From positions 1 through 40,875 of IMG/VR virus record IMGVR_UViG_2563366845_000003: DNA of 40,875 bases; one strand, 5' to 3'. Below, piece by piece: positions 1-40,875 of this stretch (the stretch's first letter is position 1; the number at the start of each line of letters is the position of its first letter). Below the pieces are notes generated by a model, which saw nothing but the letters and a program-made list of their open reading frames with translations, ran no database searches and was not told where the DNA came from. Source of the DNA: a virus (Duplodnaviria > Heunggongvirae > Uroviricota > Caudoviricetes). A program made the position numbers and the translations under genes.

Positions 1-1284
1 TTACTTCTTCGCCTCTGCAACCACTTTGCTACCCACGCCGCGGTTATTGTATTCCCACATGCGGTTGTAGTTAGTGTCATTCAGATTGCGCTGTACTTCG
101 TCGTTATCATCAACGTTGCCAGTATTACCCGCAAACGGACGATTGGAAATCACCGCATCGGCCCACGGTTTCGCCGTGTTAAAACCTTCGTTGATGGCGC
201 TATCACGGATCACTACCTGACCGTTGGTATTGGCATCAACATCCAGCGAGCGGCCCAGTTGCGCCACGCCATCCCCGGAAGCATTGAAACGGCTGTTTAC
301 GGCGAGGAAACCGTAGTAAATGTTGGACAGCGTAGCCGGTGCAAACACATACGCTTCTTGCTGGGTACGGGAGTTCACCACGCGGAATTCGGTGTTATCG
401 AACACCACTGCGCCGCGACCAGAAACGATATCCACATCCCCTTCAATGTAGCTGTTAGTCACCAGGGTACGCGGCTGACGGTTGCTTTCCAGACGGTTTT
501 GCACACCGCTGTTGGTGACAAAGAAGGTATTCTGGCGACCGAGAATATTGACGTTATTGATCTGCACTTTGTCGCCATCAGTACGCAGTGCCACCGCCGG
601 ATGGTTACCCGCATCTACGCTATCGCCCAGTGTGTTTTCGATGGTCAGGTTTTGCAGTTGCAGGCCATTGTTTTGTGACCAGAAGACCGCAGAACAGAGC
701 ACGCCAATGCTGTCGCTGCGTTTGCTCTGGCAGCTATCGTACATATACCACGCTGGTTTACCCGGCATATATTTGCCGCGTGGGTTGACGTCGTGACGCC
801 AGTCGGCTGGGCTCATGCCCCCATCAAGGGAAAGCCCAATTTTCACATCAATCGGTTTTTCACCTGTACCGTACAGAGTAATTCCACCCGGAGCGGCAGG
901 GACATACACCGTTCCCTGATACTCACCAGGCATCACGGCAATATACTGGCGCTTGTTGGTACGCTTGATAATTGCCGCATCTACCGCCGCCTGAATCGTG
1001 GTATGCGTTACACCTTGAGTACCCGCCGGGCCGACAACAAAGTCAGGTTGTGCAGGCAGGGTAATCGGGGAAGGATTCCACGCTGCAGCACCTGGTGTCA
1101 GGGATGCAAAATAGTGTTGAGCATCGAAATTCTGCGCTTCTTTTGCCGACAGAATCGGGCGAGAAGAGGTACCAGGCGCGGTTTGATCAGAAGGACGTTG
1201 ATCGGGCGGTGTTGAGCTACAGGCGGTCAGCGTCACGCCAAAAGCCAATGCCAGCGCCAGACGGGAAACTGAAAATGTGTTCAC
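1..1284 (-). CDS. ybhC: Host lipoprotein YbhC (pectinesterase-like / acyl-CoA thioesterase family); the gene that flanks att-lambda in E. coli
   Basis: 427 aa ORF with lipoprotein signal (LTAC lipobox) and YbhC-like sequence; GTG start at 1282..1284; lies immediately outside the att core. Confidence 0.85.
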   Translation of the reverse strand: MNTFSVSRLALALAFGVTLTACSSTPPDQRPSDQTAPGTSSRPILSAKEAQNFDAQHYFASLTPGAAAWNPSPITLPAQPDFVVGPAGTQGVTHTTIQAAVDAAIIKRTNKRQYIAVMPGEYQGTVYVPAAPGGITLYGTGEKPIDVKIGLSLDGGMSPADWRHDVNPRGKYMPGKPAWYMYDSCQSKRSDSIGVLCSAVFWSQNNGLQLQNLTIENTLGDSVDAGNHPAVALRTDGDKVQINNVNILGRQNTFFVTNSGVQNRLESNRQPRTLVTNSYIEGDVDIVSGRGAVVFDNTEFRVVNSRTQQEAYVFAPATLSNIYYGFLAVNSRFNASGDGVAQLGRSLDVDANTNGQVVIRDSAINEGFNTAKPWADAVISNRPFAGNTGNVDDNDEVQRNLNDTNYNRMWEYNNRGVGSKVVAEAKK

Positions 1285-1330: not shown

Positions 1331-1345
1331 GCTTTTTTATACTAA
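1331..1345. other. Prophage attachment site attL core (lambda att core GCTTTTTTATACTAA); lambda P' arm follows to about 1420
   Basis: Exact 15 bp lambda core at 1331..1345; sequence to its right matches the lambda P' arm (gcattataaaaaagcattgcttatcaatttgttgcaacgaacaggtcactatcagtcaaaataaaatcattatttg) and to its left reads as host (B arm, ccgttgaagcct). Confidence 0.9.
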
Positions 1346-1418
1346 GTAGGCATTATAAAAAAGCATTGCTTATCAATTTGTTGCAACGAACAGGTCACTA
1401 TCAGTCAAAATAAAATCA

Positions 1419-2489
1419 TTATTTGATTTCAATTTTGTCCCACTCCCTGCCTCTGTCATCACGATACTGTGATGCCATGGTGTCCGACTTATGCCCGAGA
1501 AGATGTTGAGCAAACTTATCGCTTATCTGCTTCTCATAGAGTCTTGCAGACAAACTGCGCAACTCGTGAAAGGTAGGCGGATCCCCTTCGAAGGAAAGAC
1601 CTGATGCTTTTCGTGCGCGCATAAAATACCTTGATACTGTGCCGGATGAAAGCGGTTCACGACGAGTAGATGCAATTATGGTTTCTCCGCCAAGAATCTC
1701 TTTGCATTTATCAAGTGTTTCCTTCATTGATATCCCGAGAGCATCAACATGCAATGTTGTTGGGATGGCAATTTTTACGCCTGTTTTGCTTTGCTCGACA
1801 TAAAGATATCCATCTACGATATCAGACCACTTCATTTCGCATAAATCACCAACTCGTTGCCCGGTAACAACAGCCAGTTCCATTGCAAGTCTGAGCCAAC
1901 ATGGTGATGATTCTGCTGCTTGATAAATTTTCAGGTATTCGTCAGCCGTAAGTCTTGATCTCCTTACCTCTGATTTTGCTGCGCGAGTAGCAGCGACCGG
2001 GTTTGTTGTTATATGGCCTTCAGCTATTGCCTCTCGGAATGCATCGCTCAGTGTTGATCTGATTAACTTGGCTGACGCCGCCTTGCCCTCGTCTATGTAT
2101 CCATTGAGCATTGCTGCAATTTCTTTTGTGGTGATGTCTTCAAGTGGAGCATCAGGCAGACCCCTCCTTATTGCTTTAATTTTGCTCATGTAATTTATGA
2201 GTGTCTTCTGCTTGATTCCTCTGCTGGCGAGGATTTTTTCGTAGCGATCAAGCCATGAATGTAACGTAACAGAATTATCACTGTTGATTCTCGCTGTCAG
2301 AGGCTTGTGTTTGTGTCCTGAAAATAACTCAATGTTGGCCTGTATAGCTTCAGTGATTGCTATCCTCCTGTCTCGGCCTAATCCAAACTCTTTACCCGTC
2401 CTTGGGTCCCTGTAGCAGTAATATCCATTGTTTCTTATATAAAGGTTAGGGGGTAAATCCCGGCGCTCATGACTTCGCCTTCTTCCCAT
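1419..2489 (-). CDS. int: Lambda-type tyrosine integrase Int
   Basis: 356 aa, begins MGRRRSHERRDLPPNLYIRNNGYYCYRDPRTGKEFGLG, essentially lambda Int; overlaps xis by 23 bp as in lambda. Confidence 0.97.
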   Translation of the reverse strand: MGRRRSHERRDLPPNLYIRNNGYYCYRDPRTGKEFGLGRDRRIAITEAIQANIELFSGHKHKPLTARINSDNSVTLHSWLDRYEKILASRGIKQKTLINYMSKIKAIRRGLPDAPLEDITTKEIAAMLNGYIDEGKAASAKLIRSTLSDAFREAIAEGHITTNPVAATRAAKSEVRRSRLTADEYLKIYQAAESSPCWLRLAMELAVVTGQRVGDLCEMKWSDIVDGYLYVEQSKTGVKIAIPTTLHVDALGISMKETLDKCKEILGGETIIASTRREPLSSGTVSRYFMRARKASGLSFEGDPPTFHELRSLSARLYEKQISDKFAQHLLGHKSDTMASQYRDDRGREWDKIEIK

Positions 2490-2685
2490 TTCTGATCCTC
2501 TTCAAAAGGCTACCTGTTACTGGTCGATTTAAGTCAACCTTTACCGCTGATTCGTGGAACAGATACTCTCTTCCATCCTTAACCGGAGGAGGGAATATCC
2601 TGCACTCGCGTACCCATCGACGAACTGTTTCAAGGCTTCTTGGGCGTCGCTGGCGAGCGTTCCACTCCTGAAGTGTCAAGTACAT
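2467..2685 (-). CDS. xis: Excisionase Xis (72 aa)
   Basis: MYLTLQEWNARQRRPRSLETVRRWVRECRIFPPPVKDGREYLFHESAVKVDLNRPVTGSLLKRIRNGKKAKS matches lambda Xis; ATG at 2683..2685 preceded by a GGAG Shine-Dalgarno. Confidence 0.9.
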   Translation of the reverse strand: MYLTLQEWNARQRRPRSLETVRRWVRECRIFPPPVKDGREYLFHESAVKVDLNRPVTGSLLKRIRNGKKAKS

Positions 2686-2955
2686 CGCAAAGTCTCCGCA
2701 ATTACACGCAAGAAAAAGCCGCATTGATGCGGCGATGAATTCAGCATTGGCCTGCTGTTCCATTTGGAAATCTTCATCGAAACCGCTTTCAGGATGCGCT
2801 CCTTCAATTCTGCAAATGGGAAGATATCCAACAACTTCACGATGAATTAGCGCATCACCAGCATCAAATCTCTCCTCTCCATATTCGAGCGACCACGCAC
2901 CACACGTTGCTTTTTCTGCTGCCTCACGCAGTGCCTGATAGTCAATCTTGTTCAT
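2686..2955 (-). CDS. Open reading frame in frame with and directly upstream of xis (90 codons, no intervening stop); hypothetical protein or N-terminal extension
   Basis: ORF 2467..2955 reads MNKIDYQALREAAEKATCGAWSLEYGEERFDAGDALIHREVVGYLPICRIEGAHPESGFDEDFQMEQQANAEFIAASMRLFLACNCGDFA then continues straight into Xis; ATG at 2953..2955. Confidence 0.35.
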
Positions 2956-2956
2956 G

Positions 2957-3256
2957 TCACATCACCCTGAAGCCGTTGCATTTACGTAAGAAATCGCAGA
3001 TATAGCCCTTCATTTTTTCATGCCAATCTCGATCATTCCCATTGCACCACCCATCAGGTGGAGTCCAGTTTTCTATCAGAGCAGCCATTTTCTTTGCTTT
3101 CGCCGGAGTAGCTGTTGCGGTATCGCAGTAATGACGAGTGTCAACAAACTTATCCATGCCATCGATATCAAGTACGCAAAACCATGTGTGATTCGGAATT
3201 CCTACAGGTGGTATTTGTTGCCCACGTCGGCGTTTATCAATGAGATATACACTCAC
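2957..3256 (-). CDS. Hypothetical Cys/His-rich small protein (99 aa)
   Basis: GTG start with strong AAGGAGGT Shine-Dalgarno 6 nt upstream; stop overlaps the next gene start; several C and H residues suggest metal binding. Confidence 0.6.
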   Translation of the reverse strand: MSVYLIDKRRRGQQIPPVGIPNHTWFCVLDIDGMDKFVDTRHYCDTATATPAKAKKMAALIENWTPPDGWCNGNDRDWHEKMKGYICDFLRKCNGFRVM

Positions 3257-3918
3257 TGGTTACCTCCTTTGCGAAGCTCTGCGGCGAACTCGTTAAGTGA
3301 TATGTAGCAATCTCCAAATGTTAACGAACCGCTCGACCGCATATGCTCCATAGCCATCTCCACGCCCTGCGCCCGTACTTCAGCCAGGAAAGCATCGGTG
3401 GCTGGCATATTTCCTGTTGCCTTCATGGCCTCCAAAATAACCAGAACGCCATCTCGCCCAACCACCTCAGCGATAACCTCGGTGTTGTCGCCAACAACAT
3501 CGCAGAATGCCTGAACTGCCTTACGAGCCAGCTCATTCTCCACTGCCAGCGCCGTGCGATTACCCTCCAGCTCTGCAATGCGCTGTTTTGCGGCATCCAG
3601 TTCAATCGACAATTTTTCCAACTGCTCTTGATGCTTCTTGTATTCCTGATATGCGTGCCAAGACTGACCTTTGCGCACACTATCAGTGATATCAGTAATC
3701 TGTTCTGGTGTTAGCGTGGTCAGTGGCTGTGATGGGAAAATAAGCACTTTCCCGGAATCCCAATCAAAACCAGCGTGAATTGACTGAACCTCAACTGAAG
3801 GTGTTGAACCAATGCTGCCAGGCGAATGAACAACGATTGTTACATCCATATCGCGACGATGGCTGTGGTTGTTGGACAAAATACGATTCACCAACTCAGA
3901 AAATTTGGAAAATTTCAT
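3253..3918 (-). CDS. Ea22-like early-left protein (coiled-coil; paralog 1)
   Basis: 221 aa, ATG with AAGGGG Shine-Dalgarno; coiled-coil segment (EQLEKLSIELDAAKQRIAELEGN); shares the [12 protein letters not shown] motif with the neighbouring gene; position matches lambda ea22. Confidence 0.55.
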   Translation of the reverse strand: MKFSKFSELVNRILSNNHSHRRDMDVTIVVHSPGSIGSTPSVEVQSIHAGFDWDSGKVLIFPSQPLTTLTPEQITDITDSVRKGQSWHAYQEYKKHQEQLEKLSIELDAAKQRIAELEGNRTALAVENELARKAVQAFCDVVGDNTEVIAEVVGRDGVLVILEAMKATGNMPATDAFLAEVRAQGVEMAMEHMRSSGSLTFGDCYISLNEFAAELRKGGNQ

Positions 3919-4709
3919 GCTGATTCCCCTTTCTCTGCTCTCTCCTGTCGGAACATCACTATCATCAGGTCGCCTTTTGTCGCTATCCTGGCTGTTGTAC
4001 CTGGTTCAATGCGGCTAAGCTCAAATGCGTCATAGAACGCTTCTAATGCCTTCTGGCGTAGTTCCTGTTTGCGCCGTTTTTTCCACTGTTTTAGGAAAAT
4101 GGAACCCAGCCATCGCCATGTACGGGACATGATGTAAAGCCAACCGCACTGGCTGCTTCCTTTGCGAATCTGTTCCGCCCATTCTTCAAGGGATTTCTCC
4201 GCATATTCACCAGACAGGCCATCAATCGGATGCGCTTCATTAGCCAACTCTTCTTTCGCTGACAAAATCATGCGTGTAACGTCGAAAACTTCACGCAAAG
4301 ACTTATTGATAAATCCGTGATTGAACGCAGCAGCAAGACGGCTGGCGGTATAGTTAATCCCCTCGTTGCGTGCTTCCGCACGAATTTCAGCCAGGAAAGC
4401 ATCGGTGGCTGGGGTTTCAGTAACATCATCTTCCCATTCGCTAAACTCCTCACGACAAAAGTCATTAAATTCCTTCTCAGATTGCTTAAGCGAGGTATTT
4501 TCAGCAGCCATCTTCGCGCATTTAGCCTCAAGGTTATCAATCGTGATTCCAGCAGAACGACACTCCAGCAACGCCGTTTCTAGTTTTGATTCAAGTTCAC
4601 CGAACTTACGCACCAGATATTCAGCGTTTGTTTCGTTAACCTTTAAATCTCTGGGGATGCATTTACCTTTCAGAAAACCATCCATCTCAATTAGTGACAT
4701 TTGTTTCAT
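3915..4709 (-). CDS. Ea22-like early-left protein (paralog 2)
   Basis: Track ORF 3915..4727 begins with GTG; ATG at 4707..4709 with GGAG Shine-Dalgarno is the preferred start; contains [12 protein letters not shown] motif; TGA/ATG overlap with the downstream gene. Confidence 0.55.
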
Positions 4710-4870
4710 TTCTTCCCACTCCGCCACATTGCATTCAGATATTTGTTGTCATTAACAGAGCCGAAACTATTTCTCTTAAGCAATTCCTCTCTCGATGGCA
4801 TTGGCTTTACGCGTTGGCGAATAATCATTTCTGCCGGAAGAATGCCGGGATTGTATGCAAGTCCTCTCAT
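4706..4870 (-). CDS. Small hypothetical protein (54 aa), translationally coupled
   Basis: ATG 4868..4870 overlaps the stop of the upstream gene (ATGA); GGAGAG Shine-Dalgarno; translation [54 protein letters not shown]; below the ORF-track size cut-off. Confidence 0.35.
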
Positions 4871-7728: not shown

Positions 7729-7754
7729 CAAAAATAAAGGCCGGCTATGCGGCC
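7729..7754 (-). terminator. Intrinsic terminator (tL-like) at the 3' end of the accessory gene
   Basis: Minus-strand GC-only 5 bp stem GGCCG-catagc-CGGCC followed by TTTATTTTTGG; overlaps the stop codon at 7745..7747. Confidence 0.55.
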
Positions 7755-8368
7755 TCGGAAGGAAGTCCAATCATCTTATTCAAATCTTCTACCCGTAAAG
7801 CAGGAAGTGCTGTACTTGCTTTATCTGCTTCTTTTGGTAGCAACTCTTTGCTTTCAGGCCAAACTTCAATAAGTCGCTTAACTGTTGTGACTGAGTTCAA
7901 AGCAGCCCATACATTTGATTTGATATCCTTTTTCTTGACTTCAAGTTTTTGTTGCAATGCGCAGATTTCATCAAACCTTTTTGTTATTTCGTGTTCTGCG
8001 TCAAACATGCATTTATCTTTTTCTGGGGTGGGGAGCAATATATCTTCACCGTTGCCGTCTTTTCCGTATGAATGCCAGCCAACTCTTCTGCCAGATACAG
8101 TCAGATAAATTGATGTAGAACGAACATCGTATGAGTAAAATGAACATCCCAGTTTTTTAAGTTCTTCACTTATAGCTACTAACTTGGATGATAACTGATC
8201 CACTTCCTCAGTTTTCTTTTTACCGCCAAACGCAATAACTCTGGCGTCAAGTGCAAGCTGGTTCTTTAACTTTGTTACTTCTTCAAGTTCAGTGAAAACC
8301 CCAGACTTAATTAAAGCGTTACGAGCGATTTCCTCTTTCATTCTCGTAGTTAAGCGGATTGATGACAT
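7745..8368 (-). CDS. Hypothetical accessory protein (207 aa, hydrophilic, Lys/Glu-rich, coiled-coil-like); function unknown
   Basis: ATG at 8366..8368 (MSSIRLTTRMKEEIARNALIKS) with GAGAGGAA Shine-Dalgarno; the track ORF begins upstream at a TTG; followed by its own terminator; occupies the lambda ral/sieB/ea10 position. Confidence 0.7.
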   Translation of the reverse strand: MSSIRLTTRMKEEIARNALIKSGVFTELEEVTKLKNQLALDARVIAFGGKKKTEEVDQLSSKLVAISEELKKLGCSFYSYDVRSTSIYLTVSGRRVGWHSYGKDGNGEDILLPTPEKDKCMFDAEHEITKRFDEICALQQKLEVKKKDIKSNVWAALNSVTTVKRLIEVWPESKELLPKEADKASTALPALRVEDLNKMIGLPSEAA

Positions 8369-8504
8369 ATTAATTCCTCTCAAATAAGTGGTTTGCTGCC
8401 TAATTTCATTTTCTGGCGACCAACACAAGTCACACCCATTTCACTGCGTGGCTTGCGGTAGTAAATAGGGTTATTTATGTCATTAAAAACCAGCATGAGC
8501 GTGG

Positions 8505-27847: not shown

Positions 27848-29266
27848 ATGCCGATTCAGCAACTTCCGCTTATGAAAGGTGTCGGCAAAGACTTCCGAAA
27901 CGCCGACTATATCGACTATCTGCCAGTGAATATGCTGGCTACACCCAAAGAAATCCTGAACAGCAGCGGATATCTTCGCTCATTCCCGGGCATTGCCAAA
28001 CGTTCTGATGTGAACGGTATATCGCGCGGCGTCGAGTACAACATGGCGCAGAGTGCTGTTTATCGCGTGTGTGGTGGCAAGCTGTATAAGGGCGAAAGTG
28101 AAGTCGGTGATGTTGCCGGAAGTGGTCGTGTATCAATGGCGCATGGTCGGACATCTCAGGCTGTAGGCGTTAATGGTCAACTGGTCGAGTATCGCTATGA
28201 TGGCACGGTTAAAACCGTCTCAAACTGGCCTACTGATAGCGGATTCACTCAGTATGAGTTAGGTTCAGTCCGCGACATTACACGCTTACGTGGGCGTTAT
28301 GCGTGGTCAAAAGACGGCACGGATTCATGGTTTATCACTGACCTTGAAGACGAATCGCATCCTGACCGTTACAGCGCACAATATCGCGCAGAATCGCAGC
28401 CGGACGGCATCCTCGGCATCGGAACATGGCGAGACTTCATCGTCTGCTTTGGTTCATCGACGATTGAATATTTCTCCCTGACTGGCGCAACCACCGTTGG
28501 TGCTGCTTTGTATGTCGCACAGCCATCACTGATGGTGCAAAAAGGCATCGCCGGGACTTACTGCAAAACGCCGTTTGCTGATTCGTATGCGTTCATCAGC
28601 AATCCGGCAACGGGTGCGCCGTCTGTGTATATCATCGGCTCCGGTCAGGTGTCACCAATTGCCAGCGCGAGCATTGAGAAAATCCTCCGCTCCTACACTG
28701 CTGATGAACTGGCTGATGGTGTGATGGAATCGCTGCGGTTTGATGCTCATGAGTTGCTGATTATCCACCTTCCTCGCCATGTTCTCGTGTACGACGCATC
28801 TTCAAGCGCCAATGGTCCGCAATGGTGCGTACTGAAAACAGGCCTGTATGACGATGTGTACCGCGCTATCGACTTCATTTACGAAGGCAATCAGATAACG
28901 TGCGGCGATAAGCTGGAATCGGTGACCGGGAAATTGCAATTCGATATCAGCAGTCAGTACGACAAGCAACAGGAACACCTGCTGTTTACTCCGTTGTTCA
29001 AAGCGGATAACGCCAGGGTGTTTGACTTTGAGGTTGAATCGTCAACTGGCGTTGCGCAGTACGCCGACCGCCTTTTTCTCTCTGCAACCACTGACGGCAT
29101 CAATTACGGACGTGAGCAGATGATTGAGCAGAATGAACCGTTCGTTTACGACAAACGCGTTTTGTGGAAGCGAGTCGGGCGCATCAGGAAAAATGTCGGA
29201 TTCAAATTGCGCGTTATCACGAAGTCACCTGTCACTCTGTCTGGCTGCCAGATAAGGATTGAGTAA
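27848..29266 (+). CDS. Tail accessory / head completion protein (P22 gp10-like)
   Basis: 472 aa; [49 protein letters not shown] ... matches P22 gp10. Confidence 0.9.
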
Positions 29267-38187: not shown

Positions 38188-40875
38188 ATGACAGACATTA
38201 CAGCCAATGTTGTAGTGAGTATGCCTTCGCAACTCTTCACTATGGCTCGTTCTTTTAAAGCCGTAGCCAATGGCAAAATTTATATCGGTAAAATTGACAC
38301 TGACCCGGTAAATCCTGAAAACCAGATTCAGGTTTATGTGGAGAATGAGGATGGTTCTCACGCTCCTGTATCGCAACCAATCATCATTAACGCTGCTGGT
38401 TACCCGGTATATAACGGACAGATTGCCAAATTCGTTACCGTGCAAGGCCATTCTATGGCTGTTTATGATGCGTATGGTGCGCAGCAGTTCTATTTTCCTA
38501 ATGTGCTGAAGTATGACCCTGATCAGTCATTGAAATATGTAGAAGGGGCATTGCTTGTTACTGACTTAGGTAATGGGACGTTTAAGAATAGTAGAAAAGA
38601 CGTTGCCATTGGGGATAATCTAACAGGAACCAATTTTATTAGAATAAACGGCGGCGTCTATAAATGCACTCCAGTTGCAACTGGAATTGTTACTGAGATC
38701 AAACATAGATACATTATCGCAGGCGGGGTTAAAAGCTACCTGTCTCATATTTCTAGGCATGTCAGTGGTACGCGTAGGCCGCTGAACTGGAAATTAGAAT
38801 TCAGCATCATAGACGATGAGATTACCGCAGATCTTAAAGATCAGTATGGTTACACGACCATGGGATTTCAGGGGATTTACATAGACAGCAATGATGGAAT
38901 GGTATACATCGGCTGGCAGACGCTAGACCCCGCATCGGTATGGGTTACGGTGCATGACTGGATAACAGGAGCATTGGTAACACGTCTTCATTTTCCGAAT
39001 AACGTTGGTGCACCAGAAGGCATCCACGTTTACCGAGTGGCAGGACAGCGTTACATCCTGCTGCCGTACAGCCCATCTCGCACTATCAGAATTTACCCTA
39101 TCGAAGATCCGCGTACGCTGGTTGATAAAACGCAGATTACAAACTTCACTGAATCAACACCCCTTGGAGTGCGATATCAGTTTAGTGGCTTTGGTAATAC
39201 CCTGATATACGAAAATGCGGATATGGGTTGGCCGAAAATTTTTGATGTTGAGACAGGTGTATCCAATATCTTTAACACACTGGATATTAACAGCCTTATA
39301 GAAGGATCTTACAGTCCAATGGGGACTATTACGGTTGATGCAAATGTTGGAGGTCGCGGAGCCGGTAAACCAAAACGGCAGGGTGTCGCTCTTGGTTCTC
39401 AACGGATATTTGCTGGTATTGGTGCATCTACCACGGCGGGATCTGGAAATACTTTCGCAGGGTTGCAGGGTTATATTGAGTACAGCCTTAATGGTTCAGA
39501 ATTAGGTCAGTACCTGCTGTCACCTGCAGATTTCAAAACATACTGGGATAGTTATTCAGGGAAGAGTGTTTACTCCACTGAAAATGAGGGGGTGCAGTCT
39601 TGTGATATTTCTGGCTCTGAGGAATTGTATCTTCTACAGTCTATTCGCTATGACAATGGGGGCGGATCAAATTATAGGACTTTAAACATCATTCGCGCTA
39701 ACTGTCCATCTAATGAACCTGGAACAGTAGACATGACTCCGCTATCCAATGCCTCATCACAGTTATTTAACCCTCGCGGAAGGGTGATTAACGCTGGCCG
39801 TCACCCTGTAAACCCGGCTGATGGTATTGCGCTATTTACATCGGCACAGGCTATTTGTGACTATTTGCGGAATACAGATGCAGGTAGATATGTGACATAT
39901 CTTGAACAGGATATGCCACTGTTTGAAGGTGGGCCATCTGCGCCAGGACAGATGACGCTGCCAGCATTCTGCCTATTGCAGATCGACTTCATCAACGGCG
40001 ATACCTGGGAAATTACAGTTAATGGAACTAACAGGGCTAATAATTATACAGGAAGGATTTCCAAAAACGGCGGGTACAACTCTTTTACTAAGGTGTCCTC
40101 CCGCAGCATGTCGATTCTCGGATCCCCTGGTCTGGTTGATGTATCAATTCGCTCACCTAACTCACTAAATCTTCCAGAATTTGCTGGAGACTGGTCTACT
40201 GGTGTAAGTGTAGGAGCTGCAGGTGGGGTGACAAACTGGCAGCCAGAAGGAACAGGTAACGGAGCATTATGGGAGTCAGGATATGCAAAAAACCGTGTGT
40301 TGCAGATATTCATGTCCACAACATCAAAACTGTTCTTCCGCTACGCAGACGATGCTATTCGCGCAGGTAACACAGGCTGGGCTGAGGCATGGTCGTCGCT
40401 GAACACGACCGTCGATTCAAGTGGTTTCATCAAAAAAGCCTCTCCGGTTGTGAAGATTTTCTCAGACGGTAGTAGTGAAACAAATCGCGAATCAGATGGG
40501 GTAACCGTCACACGGCTGGCATTGGGTGAATATCTGATTGAGGGTTGCGTAGGTCTGAATGCAGATGCTTCATGGGGGGGGATTGATGGTGGATTTGAAA
40601 TACCGCAGGACCGAAACAAGCAGCCGCTCATCTGGCTGGATTATGTTGTTAACCAAGATGGATCTGTGTTGGTGAAAACGTTTCACCGCACTCATGATAA
40701 CTCGCCCGTTTTTGCACGTAACGACATCCCTGGTGTTTCGAACGGTGACCCGATCGACATTCCTGCTAATCAATTCGTTTCTGTGCGAGTACAGATGCCT
40801 GAGGATTCTGCATGGAATAAGCTTAAGGAACAACTAAATAAGGCTGAATTGATAGAAGATGATGTTGTGGAATAG
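38188..40875 (+). CDS. Tailspike protein: P22 gp9-like N-terminal head-binding domain fused to a different receptor-binding domain
   Basis: First ~110 aa ([60 protein letters not shown] ... NVLKYDPDQ) match the P22 tailspike head-binding domain; the rest does not resemble the P22 endorhamnosidase domain; GGAG Shine-Dalgarno; stop codon is the last three bases of the window. Confidence 0.85.

Follow-up and report, generated by a model that had tools for sequence, protein, structure and literature searches.

A 162-codon open reading frame on the minus strand (2467..2955) joins the 5' part of an ead/Ea22-like gene to an intact excisionase gene in the window, by which we mean the whole 40,875-nt stretch of prophage-bearing DNA analysed here. 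We consider this fusion to be a real, strain-specific product of recombination, by deletion or module exchange, and a one-off by-product of lambdoid mosaicism, and we assign a probability of about 0.75 to this interpretation. The frame starts with the ATG at 2955 and is composed of a 76-codon ead fragment (hereafter Ead'), a 14-codon linker and the 72 amino acids of Xis. The 162-amino-acid product is present in RefSeq as WP_001595493.1 (also ELG53025.1), where it carries the annotation "excisionase". The original prediction stated that 90 ATG-led codons precede xis in frame and without a stop, and that the 72-amino-acid Xis retains its own ATG and Shine-Dalgarno sequence, and the list of open reading frames bears out this description; the xis ATG is at 2685 and its GGAG at 2697..2694. 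The stop-free interval at 2686..2955 corresponds to the 90 codons, and 92 codons are open back to a TGA. The fusion protein reads ...EFIAASMRLFLACNCGDFAMYLTLQ across the join and has a computed mass of 18.7 kDa, with an acidic 90-residue head (computed pI 4.4) and a basic Xis part (computed pI 11.2), while the computed mass of native Xis is 8.6 kDa.

The protein-family search that had been proposed for the 90-residue segment revealed the identity of the head. Pfam family PF13935 matched residues 3-76 with 38.1 bits (gathering cut-off, 27 bits), covering profile positions 2-63 of 139, and codons 1-76 (2728..2955, minus strand; MNKIDYQALREAAEKATCGAW...NAEFIAA) are thereby classified as the start of an ead/Ea22-like gene. 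Residues 1-76 are identical to those of P0036, an ead/Ea22-like protein of 226 amino acids that continues as ...EFIAAANPATVLALLDELE..., and the DNA of the fragment shares 99.5% identity with E. coli D1 and 94.8% with gene 21 of Sf6. The open frame is no chance run, given that 76 of its 90 codons match the N-terminus of a full-length ead/Ea22-like protein exactly. The fragment resembles the ead/Ea22-like proteins of the PF13935 family (lambda Ea22, Sf6 gp21 and HK629 gp33) in its start codon, in its place after the DUF7739 gene and in its first 76 residues, but differs from them in lacking everything after the FIAA of FIAAANPA, that is, the coiled coil and the C-terminal domain. No complete Ead_Ea22 domain followed by a C-terminal domain was found in the fusion, since identity to the full-length proteins ends at residue 76.

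The start of the fragment has been retained in the same form as in its intact relatives. The ATG at 2955 is the annotated start of Sf6 gp21 (gene 21), of HK629 gp33 and of the ead gene in D1. It is preceded by the Shine-Dalgarno-like sequence GGGTGAT, and the TGA (2959..2957) of the DUF7739 gene (2957..3256, minus strand) ends 1 nt ahead of it, which is a tight layout of the coupling type. The Shine-Dalgarno duplex predicted for ead' is -10.0 kcal/mol, as compared to -6.6 kcal/mol for xis. According to published work, Ea22 genes form a mosaic group in which the N-terminal segment and the coiled coil are common to the members and the C-terminal domains are unrelated (PMC10834534), and the C-terminal domain on its own is non-functional (PMC10834534, PMC7093339). 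Because the rest of the domain and the C-terminal part are missing, the Ead' piece probably does not function as an Ea22 protein.

The downstream part of the fusion, in contrast to the truncated head, is a complete excisionase. Residues 91-162 match the Pfam family Exc (PF07825) over profile positions 1-77 of 77 with E=3.8e-40 and 136 bits (cut-off, 23 bits). The xis gene (2467..2685, minus strand) encodes lambda Xis with Ser at position 59, and the 72 amino acids are exactly those of a database sequence named excisionase, with the UniRef name VXIS_BP434, so that the protein is identical to the sequence named 434 Xis. The Xis part also matches the solved structures of lambda Xis (1PM6, 1LX8, 1RH6, 2IEF and 5J0N), with E=7e-45 for 1PM6. 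The genomic setting is that of a lambda-type Exc gene: xis is located directly 5' of the lambda-type int gene (1419..2489, minus strand) and overlaps it by 23 nt, beside the attachment site and ybhC. The latter gene (1..1284, minus strand) opens the window, and between ybhC and int lies a 15-nt sequence, GCTTTTTTATACTAA (1331..1345; attL), which we take to be the lambda att core. HK97 and HK629 annotate att sites at the corresponding place downstream of int. The prophage is thus located at the lambda attachment site, with its left end inside the window.

The native start of xis is intact despite the open upstream frame. The GGAG (2694..2697, minus strand) is situated 8 nt 5' of the ATG, and both the Shine-Dalgarno sequence and the ATG are the same as in every relative among the 80 IMG/VR loci that encode this Xis. 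Native Xis is probably the working excisionase. Full-length Xis, its Shine-Dalgarno sequence and ATG, the overlap with int, the cII box and the attachment site are all shared with the Xis modules of lambda, 434 and HK97. The difference is that the window adds 90 in-frame codons to the gene, whereas the frame is closed by a TGA at 13 codons in lambda and by a TAA at 35 codons in HK97. A stand-alone xis of about 72 amino acids with a nearby upstream stop is therefore absent from the window, where 92 codons are open, compared with 13 in lambda and 35 in HK97. A sequencing error at 2686..2690 had been named as a potential cause, but this can be dismissed: the window differs from HK97 over 2737..2400 only at 2611 and 2605, both of which lie within xis, and on the other side of 2728 it shares 99.5% identity with intact ead genes.

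Judged by its gene content, the remainder of the window resembles a complete lambdoid prophage of the P22-like kind, with genes for a cI-like repressor, a DnaB-type helicase, Q, gp3, the large terminase, a P22 portal protein, a P22 coat protein and a tailspike. N, cIII, Kil and a RecT recombinase are also encoded by the prophage, and the gene order on both sides of the junction is coherent for a prophage inserted at attB-lambda next to ybhC.

The position of the crossover can be inferred from the alignments of the two sets of relatives. The relatives with an ead gene (D1, 99.5%; Sf6, 94.8%; HK629; 23CRST022) all align up to query position 584, while the relatives with the xis module (HK97, 99.4%; lambda; HK629; 23CRST022) all align from query position 564-568, about 20 nt earlier. 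A base-by-base comparison showed that the window follows the D1 ead gene without a difference through ...GAATTCATCGCCGCA and equals HK97 from CATCGCCGCATCAATGCGGC... onwards, and the crossover must therefore have occurred within the 10-nt microhomology CATCGCCGCA (2728..2737, minus strand), which is common to the ead parent and to the HK97-type parent upstream of xis. The two flanks thus belong to two lineages, 99.5% identical to the D1 prophage on one side and 99.4% identical to HK97 on the other, with CATCGCCGCA present in both. The similarity of the parents extends over 12 positions past CATCGCCGCA, so that, with one gap, 19 of 22 positions match in total. In ead, the microhomology contains ATC-GCC-GCA, which encodes the Ile-Ala-Ala of FIAAANPA; in the HK97-type frame of xis the same triplets are read as ...T-I-A-A-S-M-R-L-F..., and in the xis module the sequence corresponds to the left arm of a terminator-like hairpin. 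Because both parents read the microhomology in the same codon phase, any exchange within it is in frame, and the frame arises without a point mutation or homopolymer slip. Of the suggestion that an upstream gene had lost its stop and now reads into xis, the continuous frame has been confirmed, but the stop was not removed by mutation; everything after codon 76 was lost by recombination or deletion. At the level of these sequence comparisons, the junction and its origin by recombination are well established.

We propose that one parent would have contributed an early-left segment with the DUF7739 gene followed by an ead/Ea22-like gene, an arrangement seen in Sf6 and in the prophage of E. coli D1, and that the other would have contributed an HK97/434-type module composed of the hairpin, the cII box, xis, int and attP. 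The likeness of the ead motif to the hairpin segment at 19 of 22 positions goes beyond typical chance microhomology and might, on this comparison, reflect shared ancestry, which if true would change the history of the region but not its present structure. We also considered that the break in ead could be a hot spot shared with the relatives, and rejected this idea: the ead genes of the relatives continue past the break and resemble each other, and it is the sequence of the window itself that changes there.

The interval between exo and xis is known as mosaic and dispensable, and phage recombinases are known for the efficient joining of diverged sequences (PMC2327257). The junction resembles other mosaic junctions in lambdoid phages, with homeologous recombination (PMC2327257) and the boundary sequences bsq2 and bsq3 of the Sf6 record as points of comparison, in that the flanks are 95-99% identical to different phages, the switch occurs in a short shared sequence and RecT is encoded nearby. 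Typical boundary sequences are situated at gene starts; an example is the 31-nt sequence that opens Sf6 gene 21 and corresponds to 2954..2924 in the window. Here, in contrast, the crossover is placed inside a gene and a regulatory hairpin, and has generated a fusion reading frame rather than a swap of whole genes.

The 14-codon linker SMRLFLACNCGDFA (2686..2727, minus strand) consists of control DNA from upstream of xis that is now within the reading frame. It contains the 3' part of the hairpin, the T-run TTTTTCTT, the cII box of pI (TTGCGTGTAATTGC) and the Shine-Dalgarno sequence of xis, and is, by its content, a control region that is normally untranslated. The terminator-like element (2710..2733, minus strand) is composed of the hairpin GCCGCA-TCAA-TGCGGC (2733..2718) followed by TTTTTCTT (2717..2710), and is the same element as the one annotated as "putative terminator" in HK97. 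The TTGC-N6-TTGC box (2698..2711, minus strand) has the same sequence and the same distance from xis as a segment of HK629 that is annotated as "putative lambda cII binding site" in the -35 region of pI.

Whether a stop codon is present ahead of xis depends on the hairpin allele. In lambda, HK629 and 23CRST022, the hairpin is CCGCC-TGAT-GGCGG and its loop provides an in-frame TGA 13 codons 5' of the xis ATG, which disposes of the possibility that lambda itself has an identical arrangement. The HK97-type DNA 5' of xis has 35 open codons ending in ...TIAASMRLFLACNCGDFA, with a TAA beyond, and this 35-codon frame is without a genuine gene start. No stop precedes xis in the window because it carries the HK97 allele, the TCAA loop of which is stop-free. 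A survey of the 80 IMG/VR loci encoding this Xis identified the lambda allele 5' of xis at 36 loci, the HK97 allele at 25 loci with a run of five T and at 11 loci with a run of four T, and a third hairpin type at the other 8. The TTGC-N6-TTGC box was present at all 80 loci, identical at 72 and one base off (TTGCGAGTAATTGC) at the 8 loci of the third type. The stem change between the lambda and HK97 alleles is compensatory, and together with the presence of the box at every locus this supports, on sequence grounds, the idea that the hairpin is a functional element normally located outside xis. The predicted fold of the 91-nt junction region is unexceptional (z=-1.08), and it is the 6-bp hairpin alone that stands out. 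An Rfam search of the whole window yielded no family at the gathering score, and the hairpin does not correspond to a curated RNA family.

A comparable situation is provided by lambda, in which lambdap35 (55 amino acids) is followed by a TGA, 13 codons and xis. As in the window, the upstream frame of lambdap35 is in phase with xis and reads into the hairpin, and P0017 (141 amino acids) is a stop-less variant in which a lambdap35-type frame is joined to Xis. The head of lambdap35 and P0017 is unrelated to that of our fusion, and in lambda the two frames are parted by the TGA in the hairpin loop, whereas the window has the stop-free type of hairpin and a head that represents a truncated gene.

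The junction is exceedingly rare. The exact 162-amino-acid protein occurs on one NCBI contig (KB733435.1 of GCA_000352525.1) and in one Logan assembly, with no other record, and the window is identical to GCA_000352525.1 over 8,955 nt. The two assemblies may share their strain or reads, which would limit the independent support for the junction. Neither a 901-nt query nor a 141-nt query centred on the junction produced a match spanning the junction among 5,426 complete E. coli genomes and 50,697 phage records, although about 2,400 of these E. coli genomes contain one half or the other. Exact searches for 39-nt and 25-nt junction strings found none in the GTDB species genomes, IMG/VR or the JGI metagenomes, and no protein matched both halves among 5.8 billion clusters and 1.84 billion representatives. 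P0020, P0035 and others, with a fusion "coverage" of 81-86%, and P0166 gave the appearance of such matches, but were rejected as ordinary ead proteins with a coiled coil that was spuriously aligned to Xis. A search of the literature on N-terminally extended Xis proteins retrieved nothing relevant. Conservation of the two starts and the open frame in related elements was not observed, as the junction was in no other record of the five collections. Since the arrangement has been found in one strain only, there is no sign of a selected regulatory device, and the region looks, from its sequence, like an ordinary mosaic junction; a conserved new system for the control of excision is not suggested.

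With regard to expression, the original prediction mentioned two products, the fusion and Xis alone, and both are possible from the sequence, which has two starts in one open frame. We envision that the N-antiterminated pL transcript would cross the ead'-xis region upon induction or infection, and that ribosomes would start at the ead' ATG (2955), where the Shine-Dalgarno sequence and the coupling are retained. They would then pass the hairpin, the cII box and the xis Shine-Dalgarno sequence into xis and end at the xis stop, thereby producing the 18.7-kDa Ead'-Xis protein, while the 8.6-kDa native Xis could still be initiated internally at its own GGAG and ATG. Because the predicted duplexes rate the ead' start no worse than that of xis, initiation at ead' is probable, and the fusion is probably made alongside native Xis. 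A possible side effect is that translation of the terminator-like hairpin would weaken the termination of unmodified transcripts. In-frame dual-start genes are known from other phages, with S107/S105 in lambda as an example, and these resemble the fusion in having two starts in one frame and the potential for a long and a short product. They are, however, conserved, and their products differ by a few residues, whereas the long form in the window is from one strain and carries a foreign head of 90 amino acids.

The Xis protomers that occupy X1 and X1.5 in the excisive intasome pack on the N-terminal domains of Int (PMC4880445), and because of this packing a 90-residue head may be poorly tolerated. 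One could imagine that Ead'-Xis is abundant and behaves unlike Xis, either because the head hinders DNA binding or intasome packing or because it shifts the turnover of Xis, and that excision is altered as a result, probably reduced or delayed. We regard this as rather improbable; if true, a recombination directionality factor would here have been domesticated or retuned in nature through a fortuitous fusion at its N-terminus. AlphaFold2, run on the fusion as a single sequence, returned a mean pLDDT of 32.5, too low for the model to be informative, and searching the PDB with the sequence of a full-length ead relative gave no meaningful match (best E=0.26). The listed homologs were more than 95% identical and provided no diverse alignment, and MAFFT forced the C-termini of ead proteins onto Xis.

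Several other explanations for the long reading frame were considered. One is that native Xis is all that matters, with ead' as a dead pseudogene that has a weak or inactive start and with the long frame as an artefact of annotation, RefSeq having taken the longest frame where a 72-amino-acid xis and an ead pseudogene would be correct. It would fit with this explanation that almost all members listed in the 90% protein cluster are 72 amino acids long, the fusion alone being 162, that PGAP calls comparable truncated ead genes pseudogenes in other genomes, and that the xis start is the same as in all relatives. Yet the ead' ATG is the annotated start in intact relatives, its predicted Shine-Dalgarno duplex is the stronger of the two, the upstream stop is only 1 nt away and no sequence feature was found that would halt a ribosome ahead of xis, and we therefore consider this explanation unlikely. 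An artefact of assembly or sequencing, by which two prophage regions would have been wrongly joined into a chimera in a draft genome, is the least probable of the alternatives, and one to which we give hardly any weight. The source is indeed a draft scaffold, and lambdoid prophages are rich in repeats and often misassembled. The parents share no more than 10 nt exactly at the join, or 19 of 22 if extended, which is too short to mislead an assembler. Furthermore, the gene order is coherent on both sides at attB-lambda beside ybhC, the same protein was obtained from a Logan and an NCBI assembly, and the frame needs no homopolymer change.

At the other extreme, the gene could be an adaptive, programmed two-product gene, in which a long form with an acidic Ead head tunes excision and the short form serves as the standard excisionase. 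Both starts are intact, and Ea22 has been reported to favor lysogeny (PMC7093339). Moreover, other N-terminally extended Xis frames are present in the public data, namely P0016 and P0018 (110 amino acids) and P0017 (141 amino acids). The heads of these other forms are however unrelated to Ead', and they are mostly found on short contigs from Logan or ENA. The junction is restricted to one strain, the Ead domain breaks off after position 63 of a 139-position profile, and the linker is an accidental translation of the hairpin, the cII box and the Shine-Dalgarno sequence. An adaptive function thus seems very unlikely to us, and we favor the interpretation of the fusion as a one-off by-product of recombination.

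Our findings provide an example, at the level of single base pairs, of the way in which lambdoid mosaicism can join a fragment of one gene to an intact neighbor through a microhomology of 10 nt. The outcome hinged on the hairpin allele 5' of xis, which carries a stop in the lambda type and none in the HK97 type. The case also calls for caution, as automatic annotation has named the whole 162-amino-acid product "excisionase"; we suggest that xis should be annotated as the 72-amino-acid gene and ead' as a pseudogene. If the fusion protein is made, the strain would represent a natural test of the extent to which Xis can tolerate an N-terminal extension.

A truncated ead gene upstream of xis was also identified in HK97 (locus L003), where an unannotated relic of the ead start, 34 codons long (MSKIDYQALREIAKHQRL...*), is located at 1362..1466 and overlaps the stop codon of gp37. 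Truncation of ead upstream of xis is therefore recurrent, although this relic has a stop of its own and a frame different from that of xis. In an IMG/VR locus (L063, 965..1348), the DUF7739 gene is followed by just the first 38 nt of ead and then by HK97-type DNA.

Stretches of 38 nt are found at the starts of both genes, that of DUF7739 (window 3289..3252) and that of ead (window 2954..2917), and both are approximately 90% conserved in HK97 and HK629, in which the flanking genes are otherwise missing. In HK97 the two stretches adjoin each other, as would be expected had the DUF7739 gene been inserted between them as a cassette. The stretch at the ead start coincides with a feature that the Sf6 record labels "bsq3; boundary sequence".

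Two adjacent genes on the minus strand of the window, coding for proteins of 221 aa (3253..3918) and 270 aa with a C-terminal DUF4752 domain (3915..4727), have a common internal motif of 16 residues in one and 18 residues in the other, which suggests that part of the exo-xis-like interval has been duplicated or that its genes share modules. Between N and cIII there is an accessory gene unusual for this position, also on the minus strand, for a 207-aa protein that matches Nmad5 in Pfam (PF18757; window ~7745..8428; locus L007, 588..1211). The tailspike gene (38188..40875), which encodes both a P22-type head-binding domain and Phage_tail_C_2, reaches the very end of the window, and its stop codon is not seen within it. 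A search of the whole window against Rfam gave zero matches at the gathering score.

In lambda itself (L005, NC_001416 29118..29285 and 29078..29120), the 55-aa GeneMark open reading frame lambdap35 (end ...KEHQAA*) has the same frame as xis, and its TGA stop is situated within the loop of the hairpin, 13 codons upstream of the xis ATG. The database protein P0017 (141 aa; see also L001, 2470..2615) consists of lambdap35 fused to Xis with the stop replaced by W; its cluster contains 18 sequences, all from Logan. Since this fusion implies two compensating 1-nt changes relative to lambda, the joined reading frame may be real or else a sequencing artefact.

Other public sequences show joins within xis. 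In the protein P0213 (193 aa) an unrelated N-terminus of about 150 aa leads into the middle of xis at ...RIFPPPVKDGREYLF, and in P0223 (96 aa) one of about 58 aa does so at ...VKDGREYLF. Both presumably arose by deletion, which destroyed the N-terminal half of Xis; deletions that end within xis or close to it seem to be common.

HK97-type DNA upstream of xis contains yet another relic, similar to the N-terminal part of an HTH_17-type excisionase (LTLDEAC.FLKISRPT / LTLDEACSLLNDIQTYHRRINAAF...), about 110 nt upstream of xis in the IMG/VR loci L011, L015, L017 and L027. Where the relic is provided with an ATG and a GAGGTGA Shine-Dalgarno sequence of its own, as in some loci, it runs through the hairpin and stops within the cII box, the putative cII binding site; in others, the T4-run variants, it is in the frame of xis, as in the 110-aa proteins P0016 and P0018. 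HK97 itself (L003, 1440..1535) has no start for this relic. The relic might be translated across the terminator, but it is not conserved.

Finally, a third terminator-like element, unrelated to the other two, was identified ~40-75 nt upstream of the same xis in the IMG/VR loci L009, L013, L014, L018 and L086. It consists of GAGCTTCGGCTCC followed by TTTTTTG and is accompanied by a variant cII box, TTGCGAGTAATTGC. That three different hairpin-plus-T-run elements occupy the same position argues that a terminator upstream of pI and xis is functionally required.
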